A DNA stretch of 64,000 bases from an uncultured cyanobacterium. Its GTDB lineage: Bacteria > Cyanobacteriota > Cyanobacteriia > Cyanobacteriales > Cyanobacteriaceae. The notes under the pieces are model-generated. The model was not told the DNA's origin, searched no databases, and saw only the letters and a program-made list of their open reading frames with translations. Position 1 is the first letter of the stretch; each line of letters begins with the position of its first letter. The stretch lies in contig CAVQBA010000004.1 in assembly GCA_963710605.1 (NCBI GenBank), positions 1,120,001-1,184,000 on the forward strand. The letters are read 5' to 3'. This document shows positions 9,453-36,326 of this stretch, piece after piece. A program made the position numbers and the translations under genes.

Positions 9453-9502
9453 TTTACATACCTATTGAGTATAATTAATACAGACCAATTTAATTTTAAC
9501 AT

Positions 9503-12063: not shown

Positions 12064-12573
12064 GTGTAAAAGTTATTAATAATTTTGGATGTGCTTTTGA
12101 GAACAAAAAAAAGAAGCGATTGTCACTTTAAAAATTTAATTTATAGTGATTAACTATAACTACTCTTACAGCTTATAGCTTATAGCTTATAGCAAGAGTG
12201 GTTATAAGGTAAAAAAGTGAGAAAATTTTCCTTACTTAAATTATAGGCTTGTAGTAAGGGCTTTAGCCCTTGTATTCATGAATTATGAGAGTGCTTTTTC
12301 TATTTTAGTCAACTATCGTACTTAACCCGCCTTGAACTATCGTGCAAGGCTAATAGAATTCGTTCATTGTCATGAACTTTTAAATACAACTTAAAAGTTT
12401 GATTTATTATGGTTATTTCAATTGAGTTATAAATCAAAGTAAAATATAGTAGTAAAAGAGTTGTTTTGAACATTTGAATGCAGTTTCCCCTCCTTTGAAG
12501 GAGGAGGGGCTGTCATCTGAATTTATTTCAGATGCTTGTAAGCCCCGTGGGTTAGGGGTGGTAGAGGATATGT

Positions 12574-14710: not shown

Positions 14711-14909
14711 TTTATCATCGAATCGATCGTTGTCAGTTAAAATTATAGCAACACAAAAATAATTGGTTAAGACGTATTTTCTCTGTGTACAACCCCTCGT
14801 GTTTCTCCCCTTATAAAGAGGAGACTTTAATCGATAAATGCGGAAGTAATTGCCTTACTGCTATATTATTACAAACCAAAGAAAACTTGCAACAGTTTAT
14901 GTTAATAAG

Positions 14910-15005
14910 TCCCCCACTCTCCTACCCCCCTTTTGTAAGGGGGGACTAAGGGAGGATCAAGAAGATGCAAAATAGGCAGAGGGGTCGGGGATTTAGGGGG
15001 ATCTA
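14910..15005. repeat. GC-rich palindromic dispersed repeat (CCCCCTT..AAGGGGGG family) downstream of leuC
   Basis: cccccttttgtaaggggggactaagggaggatc hairpin; the same family occurs in the insert at ~28880-29070. Confidence 0.55.
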
Positions 15006-15027
15006 AATTTAGGGTACTTTTTTAGTC

Positions 15028-16440
15028 TTAATTAACTACAGACAATTCTCTAATATCAGATACCTTACCGTTAATTGCCGCCGCAACCACCATAGCAGGA
15101 CTCATCAATAAAGTACGCCCTTGTGCTGAGCCTTGACGACCTTTAAAGTTACGATTAGAAGAAGATGCACTAATTTGGCTTCCTTGTAACTTATCAGGAT
15201 TCATCGCCAAACACATAGAACAACCAGGCTCTCGCCATTCGAAACCTGCTTCGGTAAAGATGTGATGTAAACCTTCTGCTTCGGCTTGTTTTTTCACTCT
15301 TTCTGAACCCGGCACGATAAAAGCCTTGACATTTTGAGCAACTTGATGTCCTTTAGCAAACTTTGCCGCTTCTCTCAAATCGCTGATTCTGCCATTAGTA
15401 CAACTACCAACAAAGCAAACATCGATCGGTATATCTTTAATTTGAGCACCGGGAGTTAATTGCATATATTCAAAAGCTTGAACGGCAATTTGTTTATCAT
15501 TTTCAGCTAATTTGTCGATAACGGGTAAAGATTCGTTGATACCGATACCTTGTTCTGGTGTAATACCCCATGTAATAGTAGGTTCAATGTCACTGGCATT
15601 GAATGTAACAACATCATCATATTCAGCGGACTCATCGCTACGAATACTTTGCCACCAAGTTACGGCTTTATCCCATGCTTCGCCTTGAGGAGCAAAATCT
15701 CTTCCTTTGAGGTAATCATAAGTGATTTGGTCTGGATTGATATAACCGCATCTTGCCCCACCTTCGATCGACATATTACAAACGGTCATTCTTTCTTCCA
15801 TACTCATCTTGTCAAAGGTTGTACCGCTATATTCATAAGCGTAACCAACACCACCTTTGACTCCTAATTTTCTGATGATATGTAAAATGACATCTTTAGC
15901 ATAAACACCCTCAGGTAAATCGCCATTAACTTCAATTTTTCTGACTTTCAATTTAGCTAAAGAGAGAGTTTGTGAGACTAATACATCTCTTACTTGAGAA
16001 GTACCAATACCAAAAGCGATCGCTCCAAATGCACCATGAGTGGAGGTATGGGAGTCACCACAAGCGATCGTCATCCCCGGTTGAGTTAAACCTTGTTCGG
16101 GGGCAATTACATGGACAATACCTTGATTACCTGAATTGGTATTATAAAATTTGATGCCGTATTCTTGGGTATTATTTTCTAATGCTTGCATCATCTCTTC
16201 TGCTAATGTATCGGCAAAAGGACGAGATTGATCTTCTGTCGGAACGATATGATCTACTGTAGCTACTGTACGTTGAGGATATAATACTTCTAATTTTCGT
16301 TCCCGAATCATCGCAAATGCTTGAGGGCTGGTGACTTCGTGAATCAAATGTAATCCGATAAAAAGTTGAGTTTGTCCTGAAGGTAATGTACCTACTGTAT
16401 GCAAATCCCAGACTTTATCGAATAGTGTTCCTTTACTCAT
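15028..16440 (-). CDS. leuC: 3-isopropylmalate dehydratase large subunit
   Basis: [29 protein letters not shown] and GCSMCLAMN motifs. Confidence 0.97.
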
Positions 16441-16608
16441 ATTATTTCAACTTTAAAAATATAATCTATTATCTCTATCGATCGAGCGATCTTTATTATC
16501 TGTTAGAAACGATGATTTAACCAATTATAATAACAAATTATTAACAATTGACGACGGATATTTAATAGTTGATAATTATTTTTCTTTTAGAATATTTAAA
16601 GCGATAAT

Positions 16609-16860
16609 TTGTCAACATATATTTTTAAAATGCCAAACAACAAGTGGAAATTAGAAGGATACGATACCTTCGATCGTGAATCTTATCCTCTCGTAGGTGA
16701 ATTTGAGACAGAAGCAGATGCAATTACGGCGGCTAAGTCTCGTTTAGCTGATTTAGAGCAAACACAACCATCTTCGTCTAGCGGTGGTCAACAAGATGGA
16801 ATTCAAGATCGAGTTTATGTTATTCGACGAGATCAAACAAGATTTAGAGTTATGCCCTAA
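16609..16860 (+). CDS. Small hypothetical protein (array cargo); real start probably ATG at 16630
   Basis: 83-aa ORF; WKLEGYDTF..GGQQDGIQDRVYV. Confidence 0.6.
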   Translation: MSTYIFKMPNNKWKLEGYDTFDRESYPLVGEFETEADAITAAKSRLADLEQTQPSSSSGGQQDGIQDRVYVIRRDQTRFRVMP

Positions 16861-16924
16861 CTCTGAGGAAAATAAAAATGATAGTAATCAACGACATACA
16901 GTTAGCTAACTTATTGTCTAAAAA

Positions 16925-17428
16925 ATGAGCGTCCTTAGTGATATTCAAAAATGGTATGCTTCAAATTGCGACGGTGAATGGGAACACAGTTACGGTATTT
17001 CGATCGATACTCTTGATAATCCAGGTTGGTCTATTACGGTTAATCTTAAAGATACAAATTTGGAAGACAAAAATTTTGAGCCTTTTAAGAACAGGGTTTC
17101 CGAAGATAGATGGATTTCTTGTTTAGTAAAAGACAATAAGTTTAGGGGTGCAGGAGACGAAACGAAACTTGAGGAAATTTTAAAAGTATTTTTAGATTGG
17201 GCAAAAAACATTAACGAAGATTGGTTAAAATCATCGACTCAGCTTTGTGAGGAAGAATTACAATTTTTAGAAGATGCAGAATTTATAAATTTACTTGGCG
17301 AAGAGATTGGTACGGAGCTTTGTAAAAGTGAAGGTTGTATACGTAAACGAATAGAGAATAGTGTAATGTGTCGCCGTCATCATTTTGAAATGGTTAAGGA
17401 GCGTTCATTTCCCGATAGTATCAGCTAA
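16925..17428 (+). CDS. Immunity protein 53 (Imm53) family with a Cys/His-rich C-terminal extension
   Basis: QKWYASNCDGEWEHSYGISIDTLDNPGW is the characteristic Imm53 motif. Confidence 0.8.
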   Translation: MSVLSDIQKWYASNCDGEWEHSYGISIDTLDNPGWSITVNLKDTNLEDKNFEPFKNRVSEDRWISCLVKDNKFRGAGDETKLEEILKVFLDWAKNINEDWLKSSTQLCEEELQFLEDAEFINLLGEEIGTELCKSEGCIRKRIENSVMCRRHHFEMVKERSFPDSIS

Positions 17429-17510
17429 CAAGTTAATAGAGGGACTAACAAAACAGCTACTTTGTCAATTTTTAAGATTTACTATGAATGCTTACCTCAA
17501 CTATTATTTA

Positions 17511-17615
17511 TTAGTAATTCATTAACTTTTCAACGATCGACCACACTTTAATTAAATGACTTTGTTGCAAACCATTAATCCTCTATAAATATTTAAACTC
17601 TACAACAATCAATCG
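17511..17615 (-). repeat. Displaced copy A of the 3' end of the GT gene at 26031-28613 (most diverged)
   Basis: Minus strand reads VVEFKYL*RINGLQQSHLIKVWSIVEKLMNY* versus the gene's VVEFKYLEGISALLQGHLVKVWSIGQKLINNS*. Confidence 0.85.
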
Positions 17616-17741
17616 CTCCAATTATATTGACAAAATGTTAGTTATAAAGAGAAGAAGACGGGGTAAATATAATCCAACAAGTGAGATAAAATTAAGCATA
17701 ATGTAAATAAGTATATATCGAACAAATGTCGATCTAGATTC

Positions 17742-18848
17742 ATGAGAGTTGTTCTTACTCAATTTTGCGGTCAAAGAATTTTAAGGTACTGTATTTTGAT
17801 TCGTATAGAAGCTAGTAATGTTTGTACTCAAATTTGGACATTATCTACTTTCGATCCTTACAGAGAAATCTATATTTGGCTGGGAAAAATTCGGGATTCT
17901 CAGCTACCTGCAAGAATGATAATTGATGAGGAAGGTAGAGGAGTAGAACTTTTTGCCGAGAGAATAAACAGTGAATTAGTCAACTTTTATATAAAGCCAT
18001 GGGCTTCTAATAATAACGATCGGACACATCTGAATACTACGCTTAAAAGCGATGAATTAGTAAGTGCTTTTTGCAACGGAATTCTTGAGTTTCTAGGAAA
18101 TAATTACTGTTTACCAGAGTGGTCTAATATTGATAATCTTAGCAACTTGAACTGGAGAGCATTACTTCAGCCTAGAAATCATGCCGATCGCAAATGGGAA
18201 ACACGACTGGCTATTTATCAAGGAAAATATCGTAAAATTCCGAATTCTGAGCGTAAATGTCTGGAGAAATCTTTAACGATAGATCGGCAATGGCTAATTG
18301 TTCTATACTATGCTCTTGAGAAAGTTGCTTTGCTTGGATGTTCTGGGCAGACATACGAATCCTATGGATTTATGAGCCTTTATCAAAATCTTCTTGTGGA
18401 TCTTATTTTAAACGAAATAGATTCAGATTGGTACGAAGAACGAGAGACGGAAATTGAACAAGGGTTTACAGATCTTGTTAAAATATTTAATCGTAGTCGA
18501 AATCCTGAACGCATACGTCTTGAAATTCAGGCTAGGTTATCAACTTTAAAGTTAGGTCAACTTGTTGATGGTAGAGTTTGTCAAATAAAGCCATACGGTG
18601 TATTTGTTGATATCGGAGGACTCCGTGCATTGTTAAGTACCTCTACAATTTCTCAATTGCCGATCGAATCGCCAGATCTGGTTTTTCAAAATGGTGACTG
18701 GGTTAGAGCAATAATTGTATGGATGGATATTGAAAAAAGAAGAGTATTACTTTCAACAAGTGATTTAGAGCCAGAACAAGGTGATATGTTGTGCAATCCC
18801 TTACACGTTTATCAAAGAGCAGAAGAAATGGCAAATAGATATAATTAA
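17742..18848 (+). CDS. S1 RNA-binding domain protein with an unknown N-terminal domain
   Basis: C-terminus GQLVDGRVCQIKPYGVFVDIGG..RRVLLST..LEPEQGDML..AEEMA resembles the last S1 repeat and tail of cyanobacterial Rps1. Confidence 0.75.
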   Translation: MRVVLTQFCGQRILRYCILIRIEASNVCTQIWTLSTFDPYREIYIWLGKIRDSQLPARMIIDEEGRGVELFAERINSELVNFYIKPWASNNNDRTHLNTTLKSDELVSAFCNGILEFLGNNYCLPEWSNIDNLSNLNWRALLQPRNHADRKWETRLAIYQGKYRKIPNSERKCLEKSLTIDRQWLIVLYYALEKVALLGCSGQTYESYGFMSLYQNLLVDLILNEIDSDWYEERETEIEQGFTDLVKIFNRSRNPERIRLEIQARLSTLKLGQLVDGRVCQIKPYGVFVDIGGLRALLSTSTISQLPIESPDLVFQNGDWVRAIIVWMDIEKRRVLLSTSDLEPEQGDMLCNPLHVYQRAEEMANRYN

Positions 18849-18943
18849 AATGTACTATCAAGGTTATCAAACAAATAAAGTACGATCGAGTTAAAAACAT
18901 TTGTTGGAAAGTAGTTACAATAAATAAAGTATGTTTTGATAAT

Positions 18944-19177
18944 TTGAGTGAGGTAAGCATGAGTGAGTTACTAGAACGTGCAATTGCTAAGTTGCAAAAC
19001 TTGCCTGAAAGTGAGCAGAACGCCATCGCTTCGATCGTTCTGGAGGAAATTGAAGATGAACGGCGTTGGGATGAGTCATTTTCCAGTTCCCCTGATATTC
19101 TTGCTAAACTCGCCGCTTCGGCAATGGTTGAATATCACGCTGGTGAAACCCAAGAACTTGACTCAGAAAAACTGTGA
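18944..19177 (+). CDS. Putative antitoxin (start probably ATG at 18959)
   Basis: Small acidic protein MSELLERAIAKL..EDERRWDESF whose stop overlaps the downstream toxin start (GTGA). Confidence 0.65.
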   Translation: MSEVSMSELLERAIAKLQNLPESEQNAIASIVLEEIEDERRWDESFSSSPDILAKLAASAMVEYHAGETQELDSEKL

Positions 19178-19443
19178 ACTCACGTACTACTGCCCAATTT
19201 CGTAAATTGTTTGCTGATTTACCCAAACAAGCTCAACAGCAAGCCCGTACCGCTTATAGTCAGTTCCAGAAAGATCCTAGCTATCCAAGCCTGCGTTTTA
19301 AAAAAGTTCATCCAGAACTTCCAATCTTTTCTGCTCGCATTAGTAAAAATTACCGAGCGGTTGGTCAGTTAGAGGTAGATACAATGATTTGGTTTTGGAT
19401 TGGTTCGCACGCTGAATACGACAGTTTGTTAAAGCAAATGTAG
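19174..19443 (+). CDS. RelE/ParE-like type II toxin
   Basis: FRKLFADLP..DPSYPSLRFKKV..SARISKNYRA..WFWIGSHAEYD. Confidence 0.75.
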   Translation: MNSRTTAQFRKLFADLPKQAQQQARTAYSQFQKDPSYPSLRFKKVHPELPIFSARISKNYRAVGQLEVDTMIWFWIGSHAEYDSLLKQM

Positions 19444-19459
19444 AAATCCAGCATCATAA

Positions 19460-19697
19460 TTAATTATTCATTAACTTCTGACCGATCGACCATACTTTAA
19501 CCAAATGACCTTGTAACAAAGCCTAATACCCGCAAATATTTAAACCCTACGATATCTGAATCGAGTTTTAAGGTAGTTTGTAAAGCTTTTTCACCTTTTT
19601 CGCTCAAACCAATCATAAAGATCAAGAAAGCTCAAATAAGCGTGATTATAGGCATTGTTTGGATATAAACTAACTAGTTTTTTAGCAGTAGCGATCG
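19460..19697 (-). repeat. Displaced copy B of the GT gene 3' end (stop codon to CGATCG site), with small indels
   Basis: Aligns to ~26034-26272 over ~238 bp; similarity ends at GCGATCG 19691-19697. Confidence 0.95.
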
Positions 19698-19754
19698 ATC
19701 GATTTTTTGTTGTCTAGTCAAGTAAATTTATCAATACATATTTTTAGGATAGTT

Positions 19755-20897
19755 TTAAGCGTCTTGGTCAGTAGGTTTTGGTAGATCGAAGTAAAAAGTA
19801 CTACCTCGACCCAAATCCGACTCAACACCAAGTTTTCCATCATGTTGTTCGACAATTCGCTGACATAATGCTAACCCGATACCGCTACCTTCGGCTCGTT
19901 GTTCGCCCCCTCGGACAAATAGTTGAAAAATTTTCTCTTGCTCTTCAGGCAAAATACCAGGGCCATTATCTGTAAGCCGAACTAGATAGCGATCGTTTTT
20001 TAATTCACAATAAACCATAACAACAGGCGTTGACGTTTGATTATGAACGATGGCGTTTTTAATCAAATTACTCACCAGATTTTCTAATAGTTTAGCATTA
20101 CCTTTTACTATAGGAAGGTTACTCCAATCGATCGAGGCTTGATGGGTATCGATCGTATTTTGCAATCCATTTACCGCTTGCTCGACGACAAGATTCAGAT
20201 CGACAGGTTCAAATTTAAGATTGCGTCGGGATTTAAGTTTGCCATATTCTAATAAGGCGTTTAGCGTTTGGTTCATTTTACGAGAAGTCTGCAAGCCCAT
20301 TTGCACGATTTTTTGGTTACGGCTTTCTAGTTCGCTTTCTTGGAGTAAATCTAAACTAACTGTGACCACGTTAAGCGGGTTACGTAGTTCGTGAGCCACC
20401 GTATGGCTAAAATTTTCTAGCTCTCGATTGCTTTCGTGAAGCCTTTCGAGTGTATCTCGCAGTTGAAACTGACGCTGACGATTGCTCAAACAAACTTGTA
20501 CGATGGAAGTAAATTCATGACGCTGGAGCGGTGTTTCTAACAGGGTGACGCCGCGTTGATGTCGGGCAGATTGTAACATCGTCATACAGGTAGAAAAATG
20601 GCGACAATTTTTGAGTAAAAAAATTAGAGGAATATCAGACCAATCAGGCTGTTTGTTCAAGCACTCCGCTAGTCGATCGAAATTATTGTCGATCGCAAGC
20701 ACTTCTTCGGTAATAATTACCAAGCTGACTTCTGCACGAATAGCAGTTATTACCGTCTCGATCGAATCCGTAGCCATACAGTCTATTTCTTCAATTTCAA
20801 GCAGTTGTCTTACCGCCTTAGCATTGTGAGCCAACTTAGTTGAAATCACAACAGTATCCGCAGAAAGTTGGGAAGAATCGTTAAATTTAGAGATCAT
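19755..20897 (-). CDS. Sensor histidine kinase with a degenerate N-terminal receiver-like domain
   Basis: H-box AHELRNPL, N-box NLIKNA, DNGPGI and GSGIGL; N-terminal EE..QPDWSDIPLIFL. Confidence 0.9.
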   Translation of the reverse strand: MISKFNDSSQLSADTVVISTKLAHNAKAVRQLLEIEEIDCMATDSIETVITAIRAEVSLVIITEEVLAIDNNFDRLAECLNKQPDWSDIPLIFLLKNCRHFSTCMTMLQSARHQRGVTLLETPLQRHEFTSIVQVCLSNRQRQFQLRDTLERLHESNRELENFSHTVAHELRNPLNVVTVSLDLLQESELESRNQKIVQMGLQTSRKMNQTLNALLEYGKLKSRRNLKFEPVDLNLVVEQAVNGLQNTIDTHQASIDWSNLPIVKGNAKLLENLVSNLIKNAIVHNQTSTPVVMVYCELKNDRYLVRLTDNGPGILPEEQEKIFQLFVRGGEQRAEGSGIGLALCQRIVEQHDGKLGVESDLGRGSTFYFDLPKPTDQDA

Positions 20898-22404
20898 TTT
20901 CTATCAATTTTGTCGGTTCGCCAATATATTTAGGAATACCAGAAAGTATGCCCGAAAATTGTTCGAGGGGATCGCCAATATGGATGCCATTCGCATCGAA
21001 CCTAATTTCGCGAATCCCCTTTTCGTGAGCACCGTAGCGTTTTTTGTACACCCCGATCGCTTTATGTATAGCTCCTTTAGCTTCAAAATGCCGTAGTAAC
21101 AATACAGAATCAGCTAAGTAACTAATATCAACACTCCCCTCTAATCGATCGCCAATCACCCCGTGTTGTGCCACCACTAACAGAGTCAAGACATTTTGCC
21201 GATTGAGCATAATTAACAGATCGTGCATTAGGGTGACGAGCTTTTCGTTGCTTGGCATAGAATTAGCGTAGCCCGTCAAGCTATCAATTAAAACAATCTT
21301 AGCTCCCCATTCTTTTACATCCTCATTGATTTGAGCCCTAAATTTACCTGGGTTGCTGTTACTTAAGCCTAATTCACGAATCCGAATTTGGTCTGGATAA
21401 TCCTGCGGATTTAAGCCAATATCAAGTCCTTCAGATCGTTTGAGGAAAGTACTTGCAAGTTCATCAAACAGAAAAACACTAGCTTTTCCACCTTGACTGA
21501 TGAAGTTATGAATAAACAAACTAGCAAGAGTCGTTTTCCCCGTACCAGAAGGCCCAATTAATAAAGATGAAGTTCCCGTAAGTAGATAGCCGCCAATAAG
21601 TTTATCAAAAGAATCGATACCGCTTGACATGGGCTGATAAGATTCTTTATCATCATTAGGAGTCTGAGAAATTAGATGAGGAGCTTGATGCTGAATATGA
21701 TAAATGTTCATACCTTGGCTGGTAATTTCCATATCGTGAATTCCTGACTGAAAATTACTGCCTCGGAGTTTGGATACTTGCAGATACCGGTAATCTTGAC
21801 TGTAAGTAGTCGTCACTCTCGACAGGTTAATTACACCGTGGGCGATGGAAACTAGTTCGCAATCGCCAGGAGCCAGCTTTTGGTCGTCTGTCAACATGAT
21901 GGTGATGTTACGATTGTGCATATAGTCCCGCAGTAATAGTAAATTACGTCGATAAACTAACTTATCATTAGCTAACATCCGTAAATAGGCAATACTGTCA
22001 AATATTACACGTCGGGGCTTTACCGCTTCGATGACTTCTATAAATTGAGTCATTGTTGTTTCTAACTCAAGATCGGAGGTATCGAAAATGGTCTGCTGTT
22101 GTTCTGTTGCTTCTAGTGCTTGTAACTTACCAAATTCTTCAAAAACGATACCATCAGGATCGATACCCACCGAAGTGGCTGTCTGTTTTATGCTTTGTAC
22201 CCTTTGAGATAAGGCAATGCACAATACTTTTTCATCTGCCTCTACTCCCGATCGTAAAAAATGTAATCCCAGAATTGTTTTTCCTGTTCCCGGCTCACCA
22301 TTGACAACATAAATTTCTCCTTCAGGAAGACCGCCACAAATTATGTCATCAAGGGAGGCAATCCCTGTAGAAATTCTTACTAAAGAGCTAGAGGCATCTT
22401 TCAT
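20887..22404 (-). CDS. KaiC-like double-domain RecA-superfamily ATPase
   Basis: Two Walker A motifs GEPGTGKT and GPSGTGKT; STGIASLD, KLRGS and SYLAD..KKR; overlaps the histidine kinase start. Confidence 0.88.
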   Translation of the reverse strand: MKDASSSLVRISTGIASLDDIICGGLPEGEIYVVNGEPGTGKTILGLHFLRSGVEADEKVLCIALSQRVQSIKQTATSVGIDPDGIVFEEFGKLQALEATEQQQTIFDTSDLELETTMTQFIEVIEAVKPRRVIFDSIAYLRMLANDKLVYRRNLLLLRDYMHNRNITIMLTDDQKLAPGDCELVSIAHGVINLSRVTTTYSQDYRYLQVSKLRGSNFQSGIHDMEITSQGMNIYHIQHQAPHLISQTPNDDKESYQPMSSGIDSFDKLIGGYLLTGTSSLLIGPSGTGKTTLASLFIHNFISQGGKASVFLFDELASTFLKRSEGLDIGLNPQDYPDQIRIRELGLSNSNPGKFRAQINEDVKEWGAKIVLIDSLTGYANSMPSNEKLVTLMHDLLIMLNRQNVLTLLVVAQHGVIGDRLEGSVDISYLADSVLLLRHFEAKGAIHKAIGVYKKRYGAHEKGIREIRFDANGIHIGDPLEQFSGILSGIPKYIGEPTKLIENDL

Positions 22405-22644
22405 TAAATAATTGGTTTTTGTTTAATTGAATACTATCTCTACATATATTAACAGAAGTCAAACTAGACTCAGACAAATGTTTGCCGTATTTTTTTTAGA
22501 TACCTTTGTTTGCGGGTATATCGTCGGCAACTAATATTTATCAAAAGTTTGAGCTTTATTAAAAAAATTTGGGCTATTTTCTAAACGATAATGGCTAATA
22601 TCGTTCCGAGGAATATAATATAAGTAAAAACAAGTGACGAGGTA

Positions 22645-23091
22645 ATGGCGAAACTCTACTACCGTGGTATGGCACAGCAAGATGGTAAATCAAAAATAGG
22701 TAGAAGTGCCAGACTATTAGGAATTAGACTTAACATCGATATAAACGTTGAGCAAATACCAATAGGTTATCTTGACAAGCAAGGATATTTGTTACCAGAG
22801 TCATAGCGTCAGATTTCAGAAAAACTAGTAACCGTTGCTATTAAAGAGAATAAGGGAATGTCTGTGTCTTTATCGATCGACAGTTTACCTGCATTTCGTA
22901 AACCTGCCAAATTTGGCGGAAAGGGAAAAGATACTCTTTGGCAAATTGATGACAGCTATATCATAAAAGATTTACAGGCTGTTCAAGATAGCCCGACACA
23001 CGTTAGCATTATGCCAAGAGTTACAATGACTTTAGAAAGGTACGAGACAGCATTGGCAAATACCCAAAATTATTGGCAAAAAGTTGACTAG
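22645..23091 (+). pseudogene. Putative polymorphic-toxin-like domain gene (Tse2/ART-like) with an in-frame TAG at 22804-22806
   Basis: MAKLYYRGM..IGRSARLLGIR..LPES*RQ..KGMSVSLSIDSLPAFRKPAKFGGKGKD..HVSIMP in one frame; family assignment recalled from motif resemblance, not searched. Confidence 0.55.
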
Positions 23092-23112
23092 TAAAATATA
23101 CGAAAATAGGAG

Positions 23113-23649
23113 GTGGCAAAAATGGCATGGATATTTAGTTTATCAGCAGAATGTGGTTGCGATCGAATCAACGCAGATAAATTTGCTCAACATTTTGAGG
23201 GAATGTCATTGTTGCTATCAAACGATCGTCAGTACAAATGTCTTACGGACATATTCCAAGACATAGAAGAAAATTGGTGGTGTCGAGTTTTACCAAGTAA
23301 TCTTAGTGAAGTGGGAATAGAAGCCAATGAAAGTGCTTATTTAATGACAGAGTTAGGTATTTCACTTTATCAGTCTCTACGATTTGCGACAACCTTTCGT
23401 TATGCACTAGTTGGTGTTGAAGTGGATGAATTTAGAACTTACAGCGAACTGATTGAAGATTCTGCTAATTTATCTATACCAGGATTAGTTTTGAATAAGA
23501 CACTTGCAATAGATTTAGAAATATTATCAGCTTTTCGAGCCTTTAGTTCTAATTATGTTTGGCAACCTTACGCAGGAGAAATCTACAATCCACTCATGAC
23601 ATACCCAAATTTAAAAAATAAGTTGAATGAATTGTTAGCTGTAATTTAA
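23113..23649 (+). CDS. Hypothetical protein, candidate immunity partner of the upstream gene
   Basis: 178 aa, 21 bp after the toxin-like gene; FRYALVGVEVDEF motif. Confidence 0.6.
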   Translation: MAKMAWIFSLSAECGCDRINADKFAQHFEGMSLLLSNDRQYKCLTDIFQDIEENWWCRVLPSNLSEVGIEANESAYLMTELGISLYQSLRFATTFRYALVGVEVDEFRTYSELIEDSANLSIPGLVLNKTLAIDLEILSAFRAFSSNYVWQPYAGEIYNPLMTYPNLKNKLNELLAVI

Positions 23650-23656
23650 TTTAAGT

Positions 23657-23958
23657 TATAGTTGTTTAAATTAAGTTTTCTTGGTCGGCGTTCGGTGTCT
23701 TGGTGAGCGTTCGGTGTCTTGGTGAGCGTTCGGGTCTTGTCGAGCGTTACGGTGTCTTGTTCGCGTGGTGTCTGGTGAGCATTCGCTTGCGTCTTACGCT
23801 CCTGAGCGGGTTCTCACCGCTTGCGACTTGCCGTATCGAAAGCGGGTCTGACCGTTTGAGACAGTATAAAAATAGTAGAAAAAAACATAAAACCCGCCTT
23901 GCAATCAATTGTCAAGGCTAACAGATACCGTTTAATAAATTAAACTAAAAGAAAATAT
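23657..23958. mobile_element. MITE copy (right end missing) interrupted by a GC-rich insert
   Basis: TATAGTTGTTTAAATTAAGTTT|insert|GTTTGAGACAGT..aacccgccttgcaat..caaggctaacagataccgtttaataaattaaact; inverted relative of 29866-29991. Confidence 0.75.
23679..23853. repeat. GC-rich 175-bp insert with ~6 degenerate 19-bp tandem units (TCTTGGTGAGCGTTCGGTG)
   Basis: Head-to-tail units visible at 23679-23790; flanked by GTTT on both sides. Confidence 0.8.
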
Positions 23959-24030
23959 AATTGTATTCGGATTATCAGCGCACCAGAGGCAACTAAAAAT
24001 GAGCGGAGGTTTTACGAAGATGGAAAATAA
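23959..24030 (+). pseudogene. 3' remnant of a BrnT (DUF497)-like toxin gene
   Basis: NCIRIISAPEATKNERRFYEDGK* matches the IRIISAR.AT..ER..Y C-terminus of BrnT; overlaps the antitoxin start. Confidence 0.7.
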
Positions 24031-24241
24031 TCATGAGCTAGAAGATGATTTAAGACCTGAATATGACTTTAGCAAGATGCAAGGTGGTATTAGGGGAAAA
24101 TATGTCGATCGCTATCAGGCAGGAACAAACATCGTATTACTCGAAGCTGATGTTGCTCAAGTGTTTGCGACAAGTGACGAGGTTAATAAGGCACTTCGAT
24201 TACTTATGCAAATAGCCCAAAGGCAGAAGCCTAATACCTAA
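24020..24241 (+). CDS. BrnA-like antitoxin
   Basis: DDLRPEYDFS..GGIRGKY..LEADVA..F..SDEVNKALR; start ATG at 24020 overlaps the toxin remnant. Confidence 0.7.
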   Translation: MENNHELEDDLRPEYDFSKMQGGIRGKYVDRYQAGTNIVLLEADVAQVFATSDEVNKALRLLMQIAQRQKPNT

Positions 24242-24374
24242 TTATTCATCAACTTTTGACCGATCGACCATACTTTAACTAAATGCCCCTGTAACAAAGC
24301 ACTTATACCTTCTAAATATTTGAACTTTACGACATTTGGATATAAACTAACTCATTTTTTAGTAGTAACGATCG
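24238..24374 (-). repeat. Displaced copy C of the GT gene 3' end, with an internal 102-bp deletion, ending at CGATCG
   Basis: Aligns to ~26034-26137 joined to 26240-26272 through TGGAT; ends at CGATCG 24369-24374. Confidence 0.93.
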
Positions 24375-24475
24375 ATACCGTAGATGTTGCACGGATATAT
24401 TCAAAAACATAGAAGAAAATTGAATGACTACGCAAGTTAGAATACAAGGGTAATCTTTGAAACGAGGTTAAGCTA

Positions 24476-24751
24476 ATGGTAATTCGAGAGCCACGCTATA
24501 GCAAAGAGGAATTCGCCCAGCGAGGTGATTATCTCTATGAAAATCAGGTAAAACATCAAGTTGAGGCGGGAAATGATGGCAAAATTGTAGCGATCGATAT
24601 CGAAACAGGAGCTTTTGAGGTAGCTGAGACACCGATGGTAGCAGTCGATCGATTGTACGAACGTGAACCCGATGCTCAACCTTGGGTAATTCGGATTGGA
24701 CATCGAGCAGTCTTTCGTTTTGGTAGTCGTAGTCTGAGGAAGCCTGTATGA
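24476..24751 (+). CDS. Small hypothetical protein coupled to the aspartic protease gene
   Basis: GKIVAIDIETGAFEV..WVIRIG; ATGA overlap with the next gene. Confidence 0.7.
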   Translation: MVIREPRYSKEEFAQRGDYLYENQVKHQVEAGNDGKIVAIDIETGAFEVAETPMVAVDRLYEREPDAQPWVIRIGHRAVFRFGSRSLRKPV

Positions 24752-25122
24752 TGTTCGGTGTGGTCAATAATAATTGTGAAGCGGTCGTCAAAGTTGCTGT
24801 AGGGCGTATCGGTTCACCTAAAAGAATCGTTGATGCAGTTATTGATACAGGATTTACTGGCTTTTTGTCTTTACCACTTTCTATGATTAGGGAGCTTGAC
24901 TTGCCTTGGCATTATAGAGATATTGGTACATTAGGCGACGGGAGTGAAGTCGTATTTGAAATCTATAAAGGGGCTGTAATTTGGGATGGTCAGAATAAGA
25001 TTATTGATGTGGCGGCTTCGGATGCAGAGCCACTAGTGGGAATGAGTTTGTTTTATGGGTTTAAGCTTGAAATCGAGGCTGTTGAAGGTGGTATTGTCAC
25101 GATCGAAGCTTTGAATAAGTAG
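24748..25122 (+). CDS. Clan AA (retropepsin-like) aspartic protease, AF_0612 type
   Basis: AVIDTGFTG catalytic motif; TLGDG and PLVGM. Confidence 0.85.
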   Translation: MMFGVVNNNCEAVVKVAVGRIGSPKRIVDAVIDTGFTGFLSLPLSMIRELDLPWHYRDIGTLGDGSEVVFEIYKGAVIWDGQNKIIDVAASDAEPLVGMSLFYGFKLEIEAVEGGIVTIEALNK

Positions 25123-25476
25123 CAAAAGACGATTGGTGAGGCTTAATCTAACCATCATTTAGCGATTGACTACTAATTAAAAATTTTGTTGATGTTGGGT
25201 TTCATGCTTCAACCGTTCCCTACTACTGCACCAGAACTTTTCTCTATCTTGTAAAAACAGTACTATAGATCTCTTTTTCTTTTTCCATCATGAATAATGA
25301 TTTTGAAACTTAACCAAATCAACAACCATTCATTCGTTTTTGTTAAATCTTACGCCTAACTTTATATCAGAAAAAGGAGCAAACATTATCTTGCAATTGT
25401 GGTATCATATGCTCATTGATAGACTATTGTACTGCAATTGTGGTCTAATTATAAGTTGGATGCTCAATAATTAATC

Positions 25477-25800
25477 ATGTTTATTAATCCAATGTGGGAC
25501 ACTGAGAGCCAAAGAATTGGTAAAATGAAATGTTCTCCACTCGCATATAATCTACATATTATTTCGGATTTAATCGGTTTGGTTTCTATGCTTGTATTAT
25601 TTGGAGGCTTTGTATCATTTCTTCATACAAATTGGAAATATTCAATAATATTAATTCTTTACTCTTTTATTTCTGCTTTTCTTGGAAATTTACTTTACAG
25701 ATATTCTTGGAAAATTATAGAGAGGAAAGGTTTTGAATATGATTATGAAAATTGTATTTGTTATTGGTATGAGAATGGAGAAATAAAATCTTACAAATAA
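25477..25800 (+). CDS. Small membrane hypothetical protein (array cargo)
   Basis: 107 aa, two hydrophobic segments, KGFEYDY C-terminus. Confidence 0.65.
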   Translation: MFINPMWDTESQRIGKMKCSPLAYNLHIISDLIGLVSMLVLFGGFVSFLHTNWKYSIILILYSFISAFLGNLLYRYSWKIIERKGFEYDYENCICYWYENGEIKSYK

Positions 25801-25817
25801 ATCTGAAGAAGAATGAT

Positions 25818-25901
25818 AATGACCTTGTAACAAAGCACTAATCCCCTCCAAATATTTAAACTCTACGACATCTGGATCGAGTTTTAAGGCAGGTTGCAAA
25901 G
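25818..25901 (-). repeat. Displaced copy D (internal fragment) of the GT gene 3' end
   Basis: Matches 26078-26161 with 4 substitutions; encodes the identical peptide LQPALKLDPDVVEFKYLEGISALLQGH. Confidence 0.95.
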
Positions 25902-25917
25902 TCCGAACGTCAATCTT

Positions 25918-25978
25918 GTAGGGTGCGTTTTCTACTGTAACTTATACTACTCTACTGATAAATTTCTGGAAACGCACC
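25918..25978. repeat. REP-like GTAG-initiated hairpin
   Basis: GTAG-GGTGCGTTT ... AAACGCACC inverted repeat. Confidence 0.55.
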
Positions 25979-26030
25979 ACACTTACAAACCTCTAAAAGT
26001 AAGCCGTTACAGTTTAAGCTTAATATTTAA

Positions 26031-28613
26031 TTATGAATTATTGATTAATTTTTGACCGATCGACCATACTTTAACTAAATGCCCCTGTAACAAAGCACTA
26101 ATACCCTCTAAATATTTAAACTCTACGACATCTGGATCGAGTTTTAAGGCAGGTTGCAAAGCTTTTTCGCCTTTTTCGCCATTCCAATCATAAAGATAAA
26201 GAAAGCTCAAGTAACCGTGGTTATAGGCATTGTTTGGATATAAGCTAACTAATTTTTTAGCTGTGACGATCGCAGGTTCTACTTTTTGTTGTAAAACTTG
26301 AGACAATAATAATGTATAAAGATAATCAGAATTATTTTCGGTTTGCAGTCGATGTAGTAAGGTTTTTTCGGTTACTTTTAAATAGGCTTGATCGGGATCG
26401 TATTGATTAATTCTACCAACTGTTGCAAAAACAGGCTCTAACCCTTCTATTCCTTCACCTAAAGCAGGGGCAAGACGATTAATTTCACTGACTAAATCTA
26501 ATTCTCTTTGAGCAACGGGAGAAGTTATATTTTGCTCGACTATAATTTGTGTTGGCGGTATGGTTAAAGGTTTTGTTTTTCCTGTTGTTTTATTTAATAA
26601 TTGTGCTTCTAAAATATAGTTACCGTCGGGTATATTTTCAGGAATAAACATCGCTGTATTTTCGATTACTTGAAAATCTTTATTTAATTCATTTTTAGCT
26701 AAGTTATCAAAATATAAATTACTCATTCCTAAACTGTGGTCATGAGTCCATTTTATCGTTTTATTTTCTGATGAATACCATGTCAATAAAACGATCGTTT
26801 CTTCTAATTCTTGAGCTGTTCCAGTCCATTTATAAGTAATATCAACTGTCTTATTTTGACTTACTTGTGAAGGAAAAATAACCTCATTTAATTCTAAATT
26901 GCTATTAGTTGAATTAAGAGGATTAACAATAGTTTGTAACTGCTGTCTTTGATATAGTTGCAAATAACTTTCGTCGGGTAAAAGCCATTTATCTAGTAAA
27001 CTAAAATCACCACCATTTTCGACTAAATCAACTGTCATTTTCTGTGCGTCGGGAATCGAACCTTGTTCGCCTGTTTTCGTCAGAAACCAATCTAAAGCAT
27101 TGACATCTTGAGGTACTTCTTTTTCTCTTACTCCGACTTGTCTGCCATATACTTGTTGCGAATCGGGAATCGAGCCATAAAAAGAAACGTTTGATTGATT
27201 GATTTTACTAGTAGAGGGCAAAACCCCGATATTCATTCTCAGATAAGGATTAGTTTGTTTTGCTTTTTCGACTAATTCAGGTACAGCCCATTGTTTTCCT
27301 GTATAAGGATAATTTTCCATTTTTGGGCTGAGTTTATTAGTAATAAAACTTCCTCCTAAAGGGAAAAGATTGAGTAACATTAAAATCAAAGCGATCGATA
27401 CTGTTACTATTTTGAACCACTTCTTTTTTTCTCCTCGATAACTATAAATTAAAGCACTAACTATTAAGGTACAAATAGGTAGTAAGGGCAAAATATAACG
27501 AGCATCTTTATTAATATTTAAAGACGATAATAAGTATCCACCTAAGATAAAAGTTATTAACCAGAAAGTAATAGTTTTAATTTTGTTTTCTGGTAGAGTA
27601 TTTTGATAAAAGTTTTTTTGCAAATATAACCAAATATTTTTAGTTTTGACTGAAGAGTTTTTAAAATATTTAATTGCTAAATAGATAAGACAAAAAAGAC
27701 TAACTAATAATAAAAATGAGGATAATAAGTAAGGAGAAACCTCAGCATAAAATGTCCATGCTTTAAGAGTATTTAAACTAGGATCGCCTTCAATGATAGC
27801 AGAATCGATCGTCGCTCTTTTTCCTGAAGTAAAAATGACTAACCAATTAGTACGATACCAAGGATAAAAAAGGATAATTGCTGACAATGACATTAAAATT
27901 ATTTGCCCGACTCTATGCCATTTTCGTTGCCAAATTGAAAAGATACAAACAAAAAGAAAAGGAAAAAAGAGAAAAAAAGCAAATGTTTGTTTGAGTAACA
28001 ATCCTAAACCGAAAGAAATACCTGTTAATAGACTTAGCCACCACGAAGATTTACCTTGACTGAAATACCAATAACTCAGACAAGTAAAACTAAAAGTAAT
28101 CATGACAGTGAGAGGATAATCTAATAAAAATTCTCGCCGAAAATAATATAACCCTGGTATTAAAGGAATTAAGACACAAGCGAGTAAAGCTATTCGTTGG
28201 TTAAAAAATAATTTACCTAGATAAAAAATACTGAAAATTAGTAATAAACTAAAACCCGAAAAAACTAAATTACCGCTACTCAAACTAGGGGGTAAGATAT
28301 GAAAACACAAACCCGTAATGATATAAATCAACGGTGGAATTTTATTTGAAAGTAACCAAAACTCACGCCACGATGATAAATCAAAAATATCGAGATTGAC
28401 TAACCCTTCTTTGTAACCCATCACCCCATTAAGGTAGTCAGCGGGATCCCATGATGGTACGCTATTATCTAAACTAAACCAAACTCGATCGATTATTAAA
28501 CCAATTAGCCAAATCGATATTAGGATTAAAATAGGGTTCGTTTTTTTGATTATATTTGCTGACATATAGAGAGTAGAAAAATATTCATTAATTATGACAA
28601 AAAAAATTGCCAT
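26031..28613 (-). CDS. Phospholipid-carrier-dependent glycosyltransferase (GT-C, ArnT/PMT-like) with a TPR-like C-terminus
   Basis: PSWDPADYL, KIPPL, EFLLDYP, LLKQT and KDARYILP; many TM segments; LYPNN..LDPDV 34-aa periodicity at the C-terminus. True start is probably the Met at 28565. Confidence 0.85.
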   Translation of the reverse strand: MAIFFVIINEYFSTLYMSANIIKKTNPILILISIWLIGLIIDRVWFSLDNSVPSWDPADYLNGVMGYKEGLVNLDIFDLSSWREFWLLSNKIPPLIYIITGLCFHILPPSLSSGNLVFSGFSLLLIFSIFYLGKLFFNQRIALLACVLIPLIPGLYYFRREFLLDYPLTVMITFSFTCLSYWYFSQGKSSWWLSLLTGISFGLGLLLKQTFAFFLFFPFLFVCIFSIWQRKWHRVGQIILMSLSAIILFYPWYRTNWLVIFTSGKRATIDSAIIEGDPSLNTLKAWTFYAEVSPYLLSSFLLLVSLFCLIYLAIKYFKNSSVKTKNIWLYLQKNFYQNTLPENKIKTITFWLITFILGGYLLSSLNINKDARYILPLLPICTLIVSALIYSYRGEKKKWFKIVTVSIALILMLLNLFPLGGSFITNKLSPKMENYPYTGKQWAVPELVEKAKQTNPYLRMNIGVLPSTSKINQSNVSFYGSIPDSQQVYGRQVGVREKEVPQDVNALDWFLTKTGEQGSIPDAQKMTVDLVENGGDFSLLDKWLLPDESYLQLYQRQQLQTIVNPLNSTNSNLELNEVIFPSQVSQNKTVDITYKWTGTAQELEETIVLLTWYSSENKTIKWTHDHSLGMSNLYFDNLAKNELNKDFQVIENTAMFIPENIPDGNYILEAQLLNKTTGKTKPLTIPPTQIIVEQNITSPVAQRELDLVSEINRLAPALGEGIEGLEPVFATVGRINQYDPDQAYLKVTEKTLLHRLQTENNSDYLYTLLLSQVLQQKVEPAIVTAKKLVSLYPNNAYNHGYLSFLYLYDWNGEKGEKALQPALKLDPDVVEFKYLEGISALLQGHLVKVWSIGQKLINNS

Positions 28614-29807
28614 TATTGGGGCAGGAATAGCAGGTTTAACTATCGGTAAGAATTTACAGGCAGAAGGTTTTGAGGTTAATATTTTTGATAAAGGACGGGG
28701 TGTTGGTGGTAGAATGTCCAGCAGAAGAACAAATTGGGGTTATCTTGACCACGGTTGTCAATATTTTACCGCCAAAGATTCTTTATTTGCTAGTTTTATT
28801 CAGGAAAATGACGAACTTGTTCAAGTTTGGCAAGGAAAGTTTGCACGTTGGCAAGATGGTAATTATACACCTTTAGAGATTGCGACAATGAATCTCTCAA
28901 TCCCCTTCAATTCCCCCGTAAATCCCCTTAACCCAATCCCCCCCAGTAACTCAATCCTCCCTCAATCCTCCTTTAGTAAATCAATCCCCCCTCAATCCTC
29001 CTTTAGTAAACCAATCCCCCCAATCCCCCACAACGTAGCAATGCTACGTCTCTACAAAGGGGGGAGGAAAATTTAGATAAATTAAACAAAACAGGTGTAA
29101 CAAGATTAAATAAAAATGTTATTACTCATTCTCGTTACGTGCCGACGAAGGCGATGAATAATCTGTGTAAATCGATCGCTACAACACTTGATGTTAAATT
29201 ACAAACTAGAATTGTCAATCTGACTAAAAATCAGAAGAAATGGACTTTAACTGATGAAAATGCTAATCAATATAGTGGTTATGATTGGTTAATTGTCACT
29301 GCACCACCTGCCCAAACGCAAGATTTGTTAACAAGTCATACTGTCATTGCTGAAGAGATAGCCCAGATAAAAATGCTTCCTAATTTTACTTTGATGTTAA
29401 CTTTAGCTGAGGAGATGAATCTTCCTTTTGATGGCATCGAATTACAACACCCGATTTTAGGTTGGATTGCCGTCAATAATAGCAAACCTTCACGAGGAGA
29501 AAAAACAAGTATTGTGATTCAATCTAACTTTACTTGGGCGACTGATAATCTGGAAAACAATCGAGATACTATTACGCAACAATTACAAAATAGTGCTAGT
29601 GAAATTATGGATATAGATTTGGATAAATGTCTGTATAAATCATTACATTTATGGCGTTATGCAATACCTGCACAGAAGAATGAGGCTGGTTGTTATATCG
29701 ATCGTGAAAATGCGATCGGTGTTTGTGGAGATTGGTGTATCGGCGGTAAAGTAGAAGCGGCTTTTAATAGTGCTAATTTATTAACAGATTCGATCGTCGA
29801 TCGTTAA
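28594..29807 (+). pseudogene. Renalase-like NAD/FAD-dependent oxidoreductase interrupted by a repeat-rich insert (~28880-29120)
   Basis: IAIIGAGIAG..DKGRGVGGRMSSRR..DHGCQYF in the 5' part; RYVP..MN, WRYA and CGDWC in the 3' part, in a different frame. Confidence 0.8.
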
Positions 29808-29829
29808 GTACAAACTCTAAACATCTGGA

Positions 29830-29991
29830 AATAACTATTAAAATAAGAATGAGATAATTGCAGGATATTTTCTTTGAGTTTAATTTATTAAACGGTATCT
29901 TATTAGCCTTGTCAATTCATTGCAAGGCGGGTTTTAGATTCTTCTTTTTACTGTTATTTATACTCTCTCAAACTTAATTTAAACAACTATA
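29830..29991. mobile_element. MITE copy (same family as 2618-2780)
   Basis: Right end tctcaaacttaatttaaacaactata; degenerate left end ataactattaaaataagaatgagata; internal agccttg..caaggc hairpin. Confidence 0.7.
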
Positions 29992-30067
29992 ACTATTAAA
30001 ATGAGGGCTAAAGCCCTGACTACAAACTCTCTTTCTTCCTCTCTTCTCTCTGCGTACTCTGCGTACT

Positions 30068-30707: not shown

Positions 30708-31311
30708 ATGGATACATTCTCAGCAATCAAAGAAAGACGATCGGTTAAACATTATGATTCTAGTCATCAAATGACTGATCAAGAAATTAAAGACTTGATG
30801 GGATATACTCTTTTATCTCCTACCTCTTTTAATATGCAAAATTGGCGTTTTTTGGTAGTGAAAGACCAAGAAATAAAAGATCAACTAAAAGCGGCTTCTT
30901 GGAATCAATCTCAAGTAGGTGATGCATCGATCGTAATTTTGCTTTGTGGTGATTTAAACTCATGGGCAAAAGAGCCACAAAGATACTTGGCGTAATACCC
31001 CAGAAAAAGTTCAATCGCAAATGGTGCCAATGATTGGCGGTTTCTATAAAGAGAACGAACAATTACAAAGAGATGAAGCAATGCGATCGGTAGGTATGGC
31101 AGGGCAAACTATTATGTTAGCGGCTAAGGCAATGGATTATGATACTTGTGCAATGATTGGTTTTGATCCTAAAAAGGTAGCCCAGATAGTTAATTTACCT
31201 GATGATTACGTTTTAGGGATGATGATTGTGGTGGGTAAGGCGGCTCAACCTGCGAATCCTCGCTCTGGGCAATTAGATATGTCTGAGGTTGTTTCTTTTG
31301 ATAAATTTTAA
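30708..31311 (+). CDS. Nitroreductase-family protein, split by a +1 frameshift at ~30987
   Basis: ERRSVKHY and SPTSFNMQNWRF; removing one T gives RYWRNTPEKVQSQM joined to MLAAKAMDYDTC..GFD. Confidence 0.85.
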
Positions 31312-36254: not shown

Positions 36255-36326
36255 AGCGGGTAACGCGATTCGAACGCGCGACATTCACCTTGGCAAGGTG
36301 ACGCTCTACCACTGAGCTATACCCGC
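36255..36326 (-). tRNA. tRNA-Gly (GCC)
   Basis: Minus strand GCGGGTATAGCTCAGTGGTAGAGCGTCACCTTGCCAAGGTGAATGTCGCGCGTTCGAATCGCGTTACCCGCT folds as a cloverleaf with anticodon GCC. Confidence 0.97.

Follow-up and report, generated by a model that had tools for sequence, protein, structure and literature searches.

We describe a 64,000-nucleotide stretch of DNA from an uncultured cyanobacterium (the 64-kb window) that holds an intact gene for a GT-C family glycosyltransferase and, behind it, worn copies of the gene's end. Its last ~263 bp recur four times to the left, in unchanged orientation, and blocks of accessory genes lie between the copies. In our preferred reading, to which we give about an even chance, this array arose by serial, recombinase-free "insertion with long target duplication" at the tail of the GT-C gene, carried out by the homologous recombination of the host. 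At least three to four insertions, each a separate event within the final ~260 bp of the gene, would have enlarged the interval between leuC and the GT-C gene.

Four displaced copies of one gene end

The gene, its tail, the displaced copies and the left boundary of the array are located as follows.

26031..28613, minus strand: intact gene for a GT-C family glycosyltransferase of 860 aa, with a PMT/PMT_2 domain and a TPR-like C-terminal region; the presumed insertion target
26030..26292, minus strand: functional tail of the gene (last ~87 codons and stop codon), the repeated segment; its extent is that of the alignment of the longest copy (A)
25902..26030, no strand: spacer of 129 bp between copy C and the GT-C stop codon, without an open reading frame (ORF); single copy in the genome
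25818..25901, minus strand: tail copy C, 95.2 % identical to 26078-26161 over 84 bp, truncated at both ends
24228..24376, minus strand: tail copy B, two blastn segments, with an internal deletion of ~95 bp at TGGAT
19450..19713, minus strand: tail copy A, the longest, frameshifted, with 7 gap positions
17504..17607, minus strand: tail copy D, the oldest, 79.8 % identical to 26027-26130 over 104 bp, with in-frame stops
15028..16440, minus strand: leuC (aconitase-family large subunit; Pfam Aconitase 1.4e-171), left boundary of the array, its start codon facing the array

Pairwise blastn within 14500-29500 aligned copy A (19456-19713) to 26030-26292 with 86.0 % identity over 264 columns, and copy B in two segments, 24240-24341 to 26036-26137 (92.2 % over 102) and 24335-24374 to 26233-26272 (87.5 % over 40); a separate repeat search returned identical families. 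The right junction of copy B lies at AACGATCG, which is common to the ORF178-like gene fragment beside it. The junctions at TGGAT and AACGATCG point to microhomology-type joins. An earlier sequence-only reading of this DNA had proposed four displaced tails in the same orientation, confined to this locus and left behind by a gene that was restored each time. The pairwise alignments bear out the four copies, with coordinates and spacings right within a few bases, and the confinement to this locus and the intactness of the gene hold as well, as set out below.

Translated in the frame of the gene, the copies read as a broken GT-C C-terminus: A has frameshifts, D has stops, B has its deletion and C is truncated. 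Split genes elsewhere in the window may mean indel errors in the consensus, and single frameshifts in the copies carry little weight. Copies A, B and D resemble the gene up to its stop codon and no further. From left to right, the gap between the preceding plus-strand stop codon and the copy measures 76, 7-13, 0 (overlap) and 17 bp. Unbroken identity across the gene, A and B extends over at most 23 bp (26053-26075), by a rough estimate about the chance length at the divergence of A. Overall, the repeats are 84-264 bp long and otherwise unique in the genome, and the blocks measure 0.1-4.6 kb, well under 20 kb.

A degenerate motif of 51-53 nt built from the copies had five matches in the window and none in each of 100 shuffles. 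We then searched the whole assembly, which comprises 3.93 Mb in 7 contigs, is 84.9 % complete and carries the locus on a contig of 1.42 Mb. All six DNA matches at E<1e-3 fall at the array locus, the next being a 28-nt AT-rich match, and tblastn with the last 95 residues found only the array locus below E=1e-4. Since tail matches are confined to the locus, the tail is not a dispersed repeat; the same type of search caught a repeat resembling a miniature inverted-repeat transposable element (MITE) in more than 100 places, so that dispersal of the tail would have shown.

We regard an assembly artefact as extremely improbable. The split genes in the window do indicate that the consensus may hold indel errors, but errors create no diverged repeats, whereas the copies differ by 5-20 % and in length, have unique flanks and lie in a contig of 1.42 Mb.

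The 860-aa ORF at 26031-28613 matches Pfam PMT (1.6e-14) and PMT_2 (5.1e-12). Searches of 30 other genomes gave orthologues in 24, at identities of at most 61 %, with alignments that reach residue 846-860 of 860. In an alignment of the C-terminal 350 aa of 20 sequences, conservation runs through to the terminus, and the GT-C gene of the window is intact up to this conserved C-terminus. As the orthologues keep the tail, the tail is ancestral and functional, and the displaced copies derive from the gene, not the reverse.

Cargo between the copies

The tail copies separate four blocks of genes, numbered from leuC towards the GT-C gene.

16609..17428, plus strand: block 0, with orf83 (16609-16860) and the gene for an Imm53 immunity protein (16925-17428; Pfam Imm53 3.2e-33)
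17742..19443, plus strand: block 1, opening with the gene for a 368-aa protein that has an unassigned N-terminal part and a C-terminal S1 domain (17742-18848; Pfam S1 3e-12)
18944-19177 and 19174-19443, plus strand: block 1, putative 77-aa antitoxin and ParE-like toxin (Pfam ParE_like 5e-12)
19755..24241: block 2, with a histidine kinase (19755-20897, minus strand; Pfam HATPase_c/HisKA) and a KaiC-like double ATPase (20887-22404, minus strand; KaiC 1.6e-65)
22645-23091, plus strand: block 2, Tse2-type ADP-ribosyltransferase toxin, split into two ORFs (ADPRTs_Tse2 3.3e-11)
23113-23649, plus strand: block 2, ORF178, a presumed immunity gene by position only
~23650-23960: block 2, MITE-like dispersed repeat with well over 100 genome copies, on all contigs
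23999-24241, plus strand: block 2, orf80, without family match
24367..25800, plus strand: block 3, opening with the ORF178-like gene fragment (24367-24422), 77 % identical to 23221-23276
24476-24751, 24748-25122 and 25477-25800, plus strand: block 3, orf91, a clan AA aspartic protease (TIGR03698 7.4e-14) and a small membrane protein

The cargo is accessory and consists of modules for addiction, immunity and signalling. The blocks hold 2-5 genes, and those of block 2 lie on both strands. By pairwise blastn the blocks are mutually unrelated except for the one 56-bp ORF178-like fragment, and apart from this fragment the claim that the tails punctuate unrelated cargo holds. The label "BrnTA" given earlier to the end of block 2 was not confirmed: orf80 has no family match, and the stretch upstream of it is the dispersed MITE-like repeat. 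A 73-aa "ORF" at 23700-23921 lies inside this repeat and is probably no gene; a related MITE copy is found near 29865-29994. Base composition does not separate cargo from core (blocks 33-39 % G+C, leuC 40 %, genome 33 %).

Several cargo genes have relatives on plasmids. The S1 gene is 73-79 % identical at the nucleotide level to genes on four cyanobacterial plasmids, one of them beside parA. Of 120 other genomes in the order, 4 have, among the matches listed, relatives that cover the N-terminal part of the S1 protein; the remaining listed matches span the S1 domain alone, and there are 92 matches more. At three loci of S1-gene relatives in other genomes, both the other cargo and the GT tail were absent. 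The antitoxin/ParE pair of block 1 is 71 % identical to a pair on the Kovacikia plasmid pB. On Kovacikia minuta plasmid pB (NZ_CP083584.1 24571-33003), the homologous toxin pair stands in a same-strand gene row behind an annotated integron integrase, and the antitoxin/ParE-like pair may travel as an integron cassette elsewhere. For the KaiC-like protein, the best matches on plasmids come from alphaproteobacteria (~40 % aa identity), and relatives of the aspartic protease lie on 10 cyanobacterial plasmids (34-38 % aa identity). The orf91/protease pair also has a paralogous pair in this genome, at C4:593506-594134 (C2, C3, C4 and C6 denote contigs of the assembly). Plasmid searches with 24200-26400 and with ORF178 returned no match.

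Recombinases, nucleases and structured elements

The array carries no sign of dedicated integration machinery. None of the eight genome matches to the tyrosine recombinase family PF00589 and not the single match to the resolvase-type family PF00239 lies inside the 64-kb window, in agreement with the earlier claim that no recombinase stands in or beside the array. For integron integrases (TIGR02249; cut-off 265 bits), the best score was 38.5, on other contigs. We compared the 15 array proteins with up to four libraries (Pfam, NCBIfam, PADLOC, PHROGs) and found no nuclease, recombinase or transposase family; LAGLIDADG, GIY-YIG and HNH were likewise without a match among them. Nor did tail copies turn up beside any of the recombinase genes of the genome.

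Structured elements gave the same result. Folding of the attC type as single-stranded DNA is absent from the five copies tested on the plus strand and the three on the minus strand (z -0.42 to +1.31), and the fold test of the spacer at 25902-26030 had no significant signal (z +0.90 and -0.30). None of the 18 inverted-repeat pairs found lies at block ends, Rfam returned nothing at E<=1 within 14000-30000, and a tRNA scan placed the only tRNA of the window at 36255-36326, 10 kb from the array. To the left, 6 kb away from the array, there is an IS200/IS605-type element (9051-10717) that comprises tnpA (Y1 transposase) and tnpB. The genome has intact genes for RecA and a ComEC-type uptake channel, and ComEC is also present in non-competent control genomes.

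These searches bear on a homing-endonuclease-type invasion, in which a nuclease would have cut the tail, copied itself in with a recoded end and since been lost. The general pattern of such an invasion, a replacement tail with synonymous differences next to displaced old tails, resembles the array. The 15 array proteins, in contrast, include no nuclease family, and the slot next to the gene is occupied by the 129-bp spacer without an ORF, which makes this explanation very unlikely.

The same scar at other genes of the genome

We compared the genome with itself in windows and filtered the matches for ORFs whose end recurs downstream on the same strand. This revealed two further clean cases, one at a response-regulator gene and one at an M61 peptidase gene.

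C2:199500-206500, at 1632-2330 and 4921-5168 within it: response-regulator locus, gene and displaced end
C3:36000-42600, at 4347-4416 and 1630-1699 within it: M61 locus, the two tails

The last 253 bp of the OmpR-type response-regulator gene are found again 2.6 kb downstream with 90.1 % identity, in a copy that has two frameshifting deletions. Between the two tails lie MazF, MazE and one unassigned ORF on the opposite strand, and no recombinase. Of the 20 substitutions between the tails, 14 affect third positions (p=0.0009 against 1/3; p=0.017 against 0.44, the latter being our own rough expectation for one live and one dead copy), and 14 are synonymous. MITE copies flank both response-regulator tails, and a second MITE family occurs around the C2 locus. 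At the M61 peptidase gene, the last 70 bp recur 2.6 kb downstream (78.6 % identity) and nowhere else in the genome; the tails enclose two ORFs, of 359 and 415 aa, which match no family. The finding of three different targets without an integrase favours a generic homology-based route.

Three other candidates from this comparison were rejected: C2:15337-17832 is repetitive coding sequence, C6:690101-692905 holds three paralogues with common ends, and at C4:1328000-1339500 a LysR - FG-GAP unit has undergone tandem segmental duplication and, in part, deletion. Short displaced ends of two minus-strand neighbours have remained there, which shows another way in which tails become displaced. The only other locus of the genome with at least five local direct copies is C4:457359-461258, where six non-coding direct repeats of ~100-200 bp, 72-83 % identical, lie ~1 kb apart outside ORFs of at least 80 aa.

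Age order of the copies

Using the pairwise blastn alignments against the gene, we divided the differences into private changes, present in one copy only, and shared sites, at which at least two copies share a base against the gene. Private changes amount to 1/84 in C (1.2 %), 8/142 in B (5.6 %), 21/253 in A (8.3 %) and 14/97 in D (14.4 %). Private decay therefore climbs monotonically with distance from the gene, and indels follow the same order. Since decay grows outward, the newest copy adjoins the gene, as serial displacement predicts. Private changes fall at third codon positions in 16 of 44 cases, as in neutral decay. Eight of the nine shared sites are third positions (p=0.001), so that, relative to the displaced tails, the functional one has undergone nearly exclusively synonymous change. 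We had considered the codon-position excess as proof of imported alleles and dropped this argument, as selection on the functional copy explains most of it.

Copy C differs from the gene at four positions, all of them synonymous third positions, though it has only one private change. The gene and its nearest copy therefore resemble two alleles more than an original and a copy that decayed in place. The expectation from purifying selection is exceeded by copy C and the response-regulator locus alone, at p~0.02-0.04, where p~0.02 for copy C is a rough estimate. At the extreme end, the gene reads …INNS*, B and A share …MNN* and D has …MNY*.

A purely local origin has to be weighed here. The gene end would have been duplicated in place by slippage or unequal crossing-over, and unrelated genes would have landed later, with no import of tails. 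The private changes do resemble neutral decay, the shared differences can be synonymous drift, and tandem segmental duplication with deletion is known in this genome from the LysR/FG-GAP region. This origin, however, needs four duplications and at least four independent insertions, each exactly between copies. It also has to account for cargo that is unrelated from block to block apart from the 56-bp fragment and lies within 0-76 bp of the stop-codon end of the copies. Copy C, moreover, has one private change against three gene-side differences (rough p~0.02), and it is B, not C, that shares derived bases with the gene. We consider a purely local origin unlikely.

Comparison with relatives

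A scan of genome_contigs, metagenome_contigs and viral_contigs with the tail motif returned no stretch, and a search of metagenome_contigs with the C-terminal 400 aa gave no relative either, even though 88 stretches there fit the peptide pattern. In the loci of 13 relatives, followed for up to 19 kb downstream, the tail matched only itself. Within ~19 kb downstream in the same 13 relatives, leuC, the debranching-enzyme pieces and all cargo were absent, with the exception of generic kinase matches and an amine oxidase in one locus.

None of 80 orthologous loci has a same-orientation downstream tail copy; downstream sequence of at least 2, 5 and 9 kb is available for 68, 58 and 52 of them, respectively, and at least four of the contigs overlap the set of 13 relatives. 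The GT-C gene is thus no general landing pad, and the reusable one proposed earlier has no counterpart at these 80 loci. Among 34 of 65 listed ORFs, those nearest the end of the gene, downstream in the loci of 12 relatives, there was no integrase. What lies downstream of the GT-C gene varies across the family, even where no tail copies occur.

In a Prochloron metagenome-assembled genome, an inverted 167-bp tail fragment (71 % nucleotide, 66 % aa identity) beside a second glycosyltransferase gene was examined and set aside as a different pattern. This fragment (12498-12683) lies 1.4 kb downstream, after a mannosyltransferase-like gene and with an IS605 OrfB fragment nearby. In two relatives the first downstream ORF checked is a small accessory gene, which encodes a PIN toxin in the first case and a 23S-rRNA-intervening-sequence protein in the second (11051-11467 and 727-1104 of their loci).

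How the array may have formed

In serial insertion with long target duplication, the incoming DNA would bring its own version of the end of the gene, so that the gene stays whole. The product would be [old tail]-[cargo]-[new tail + gene], with the old end left on the far side to decay as a pseudogene fragment, and newer inserts would end up nearer the gene. Two routes can be envisaged. Circularised DNA could enter by a single Campbell-type crossover in the tail homology, or DNA from diverged relatives or plasmids could be captured by one-sided homology-facilitated recombination. Once two tails are present, they would serve as homology arms for more gain, loss and conversion. The import of a tail at each event, a diverged or plasmid-borne donor and RecA-type chemistry are the parts of this scheme that we infer. 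A recombinase-free route is favoured by the three scarred gene ends without an integrase, the long coding repeats and the junction microhomology, and further by the plasmid-type cargo, the intact RecA and ComEC-type channel, and the published cases of long target duplication.

The tails may also be viewed, more tentatively, as an analogue of an integron that is driven by RecA and needs no dedicated recombinase, and in which a cassette is any DNA joined to one ~260-bp gene end. A cassette would loop out by homologous recombination between tails and travel free or plasmid-borne; its re-entry into any related genome, by a single crossover in the resident tail, would repair the gene and leave the former tail behind. 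The process would be generic in the lineage, with the response-regulator/MazEF and M61 loci as one-unit examples.

Several observations weigh against recombinase-free serial insertion. Searches for close relatives among genomes and metagenome contigs, and for sequencing runs over 16450-26400, came back empty, so that neither an empty site nor unit-wise variation nor a circular form was seen. The third-position excess is largely what purifying selection on the live copy would give after in-place duplication. Tail-like sequence is absent to the left of block 0 (blastn, genome search and tblastn), and block 0 is either old downstream flank or a block whose outer tail was lost. Copy C agrees with the oldest copies at three sites, whereas B carries derived bases of the gene. 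This mixed base sharing makes the history reticulate rather than a simple stack, and it would need crossovers that made hybrid tails, diverged alleles that were imported, or conversion among the copies. A homology edge at the stop codon is also expected of gene-restoring elements that carry an integrase, and a recombinase could have acted in trans, given an assembly that is 84.9 % complete and has eight tyrosine-recombinase genes elsewhere. PMC2853133, too, leaves it unestablished how long target duplication comes about. The idea that each event pushes the old tail outward is supported by the decay gradient and not by the reticulate bases of copy C or by block 0, which has no outer tail.

The main rival is accretion of the type seen for cis-mobilizable elements (CIMEs). 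Elements with a tyrosine or serine recombinase would have integrated at the 3' end of the GT-C gene through an attachment site (attP) that contains the gene end, and their recombination modules would later have been deleted or supplied in trans. The layout, with direct repeats of the 3' end of a target gene that stays intact and the newest unit closest to it, fits the accretion of CIMEs and IMEs (integrative and mobilizable elements), the ssrA islands of Dehalococcoides and tycheposons. In three copies the homology breaks off at the stop codon; against the gene, A and B have three synonymous bases in common (26244, 26262, 26265), as from one element family; and the genome has eight tyrosine recombinase genes elsewhere. 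On the other hand, the four units and the 64-kb window contain no recombinase or fragment of one, and the units measure merely 1.4-4.6 kb. The repeats are coding sequence of 84-263 bp, far above usual att cores, with no identity block beyond chance. No tail copy lies near the recombinase genes of the genome, no integrase was seen among the 34 ORFs of the 12 relatives' loci, and two other genes bear the same scar in different sequences, again with no integrase. We hold CIME-type accretion to be less likely than recombinase-free insertion, though it is the strongest of the rivals. If an integrase turns up in relatives, the locus becomes an ordinary decayed accretion array.

If, as we prefer to read it, the array was built without a dedicated recombinase, homologous recombination and a duplicated gene end suffice for an ordered, growing store of accessory genes. 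This would help explain the spread of toxin-antitoxin and immunity modules in cyanobacteria without obvious mobile-element machinery. It also yields a search rule for genomes, namely a gene followed by worn copies of its own end.

Other features of the window

Five genes in the window are split or truncated.

12574-14710: glycogen debranching enzyme
28594-29807: amine oxidase
30708-31311: nitroreductase
10808-11596: SAM synthetase
22645-23091: Tse2-like toxin of block 2

Together with the 84.9 % completeness in 7 contigs, these split genes suggest either long-read indel errors or real gene decay. A lone homologue of DndE (DNA phosphorothioation) at 38363-38770 and an EH_Signature-domain protein at 41815-43302 lie a few kb apart, and the pair may be the remnant of a defence island.

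Comparison with known systems

In integrons and clusters of attC sites lacking integron integrases (CALINs), captured accessory genes stand in an ordered row, and each unit has a repeated element at its 3' side; the attC sites there are imperfect palindromes that fold in single-stranded form. The locus described here differs in that the genome has no IntI, the copies form no attC-like hairpins and the repeats come from the end of a protein-coding gene. Integron cassettes are mostly single, co-oriented and promoterless, whereas the blocks here comprise 2-5 genes, on both strands in block 2. With no IntI, no attC-type structure and multi-gene, two-stranded blocks, the array is not integron-like in the sense of the sequence-only reading.

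At Rhs/CdiA loci, displaced toxic tips and orphan immunity genes accumulate downstream. The array likewise combines old 3' pieces with immunity-type genes, here an Imm53 gene and a Tse2-type toxin fragment. Its parent gene, in contrast, encodes a PMT/PMT_2 glycosyltransferase with a C-terminus conserved in 20 orthologues and is no polymorphic toxin. The repeat is the conserved extreme end with the stop codon, there are no variable tips, and the cargo lies mostly on the opposite strand. Elements of the homing-endonuclease type carry an endonuclease ORF beside the replacement tail, and here there is none.

Among the closest published phenomena is insertion with long target duplication. The part of PMC2853133 (Furuta et al. 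2010, citing Nobusato et al. 2000) that describes it reports inserts without mobility genes between unique direct repeats of 46-423 bp, with cases in naturally competent bacteria and in the cyanobacterium Microcystis; the repeats may overlap the 3' end of a gene. As in our array, an insert of less than 20 kb, unique direct repeats above 30 bp, no mobility gene and addiction-type cargo come together in these cases. As described there, they are single events with restriction-modification genes, proven by the empty site in a sister genome, whereas the GT-C locus has four stacked events at one gene end, with toxin-antitoxin, immunity and signalling cargo.

Tandem accretion of CIMEs and IMEs at the 3' end of a gene is described in the relevant part of PMC5704250, for example ICESt1/ICESt3 at fda (citing Pavlovic 2004 and Bellanger 2011). 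There, too, the gene stays intact, units without integration genes persist, and arrivals use a site that contains the end of the gene. The array shares with CIME arrays that its units are bounded by direct repeats with the 3' end of the intact target gene. In the systems covered there, at least one partner has a site-specific integrase and the att cores are short; here no integrase is found nearby, and the repeats are long and coding.

Stacks downstream of one essential gene, with copies of its 3' end between the units and newer arrivals pushing older ones outward, are known from the ssrA islands of Dehalococcoides, which are bounded by 20-bp repeats and in some cases lack integrases (PMC3146451, in the part concerned), and from the tycheposons at tRNA genes in the cyanobacterium Prochlorococcus (10.1101/2020.12.28.424599, likewise). 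In these accounts the targets are tmRNA or tRNA genes, the repeats are of ~20 bp or partial tRNAs, and many units carry DsiB or tyrosine recombinases. The target here is no tRNA or tmRNA, which sets the array apart from such island stacks. With 3'-end accretion, tmRNA/tRNA stacks and long target duplication in print, the view that no system of this form has been described cannot, in principle, be kept. What sets this locus apart is the combination of a protein-coding target, coding repeats of 84-263 bp and four stacked units, with no recombinase in the array or the window.

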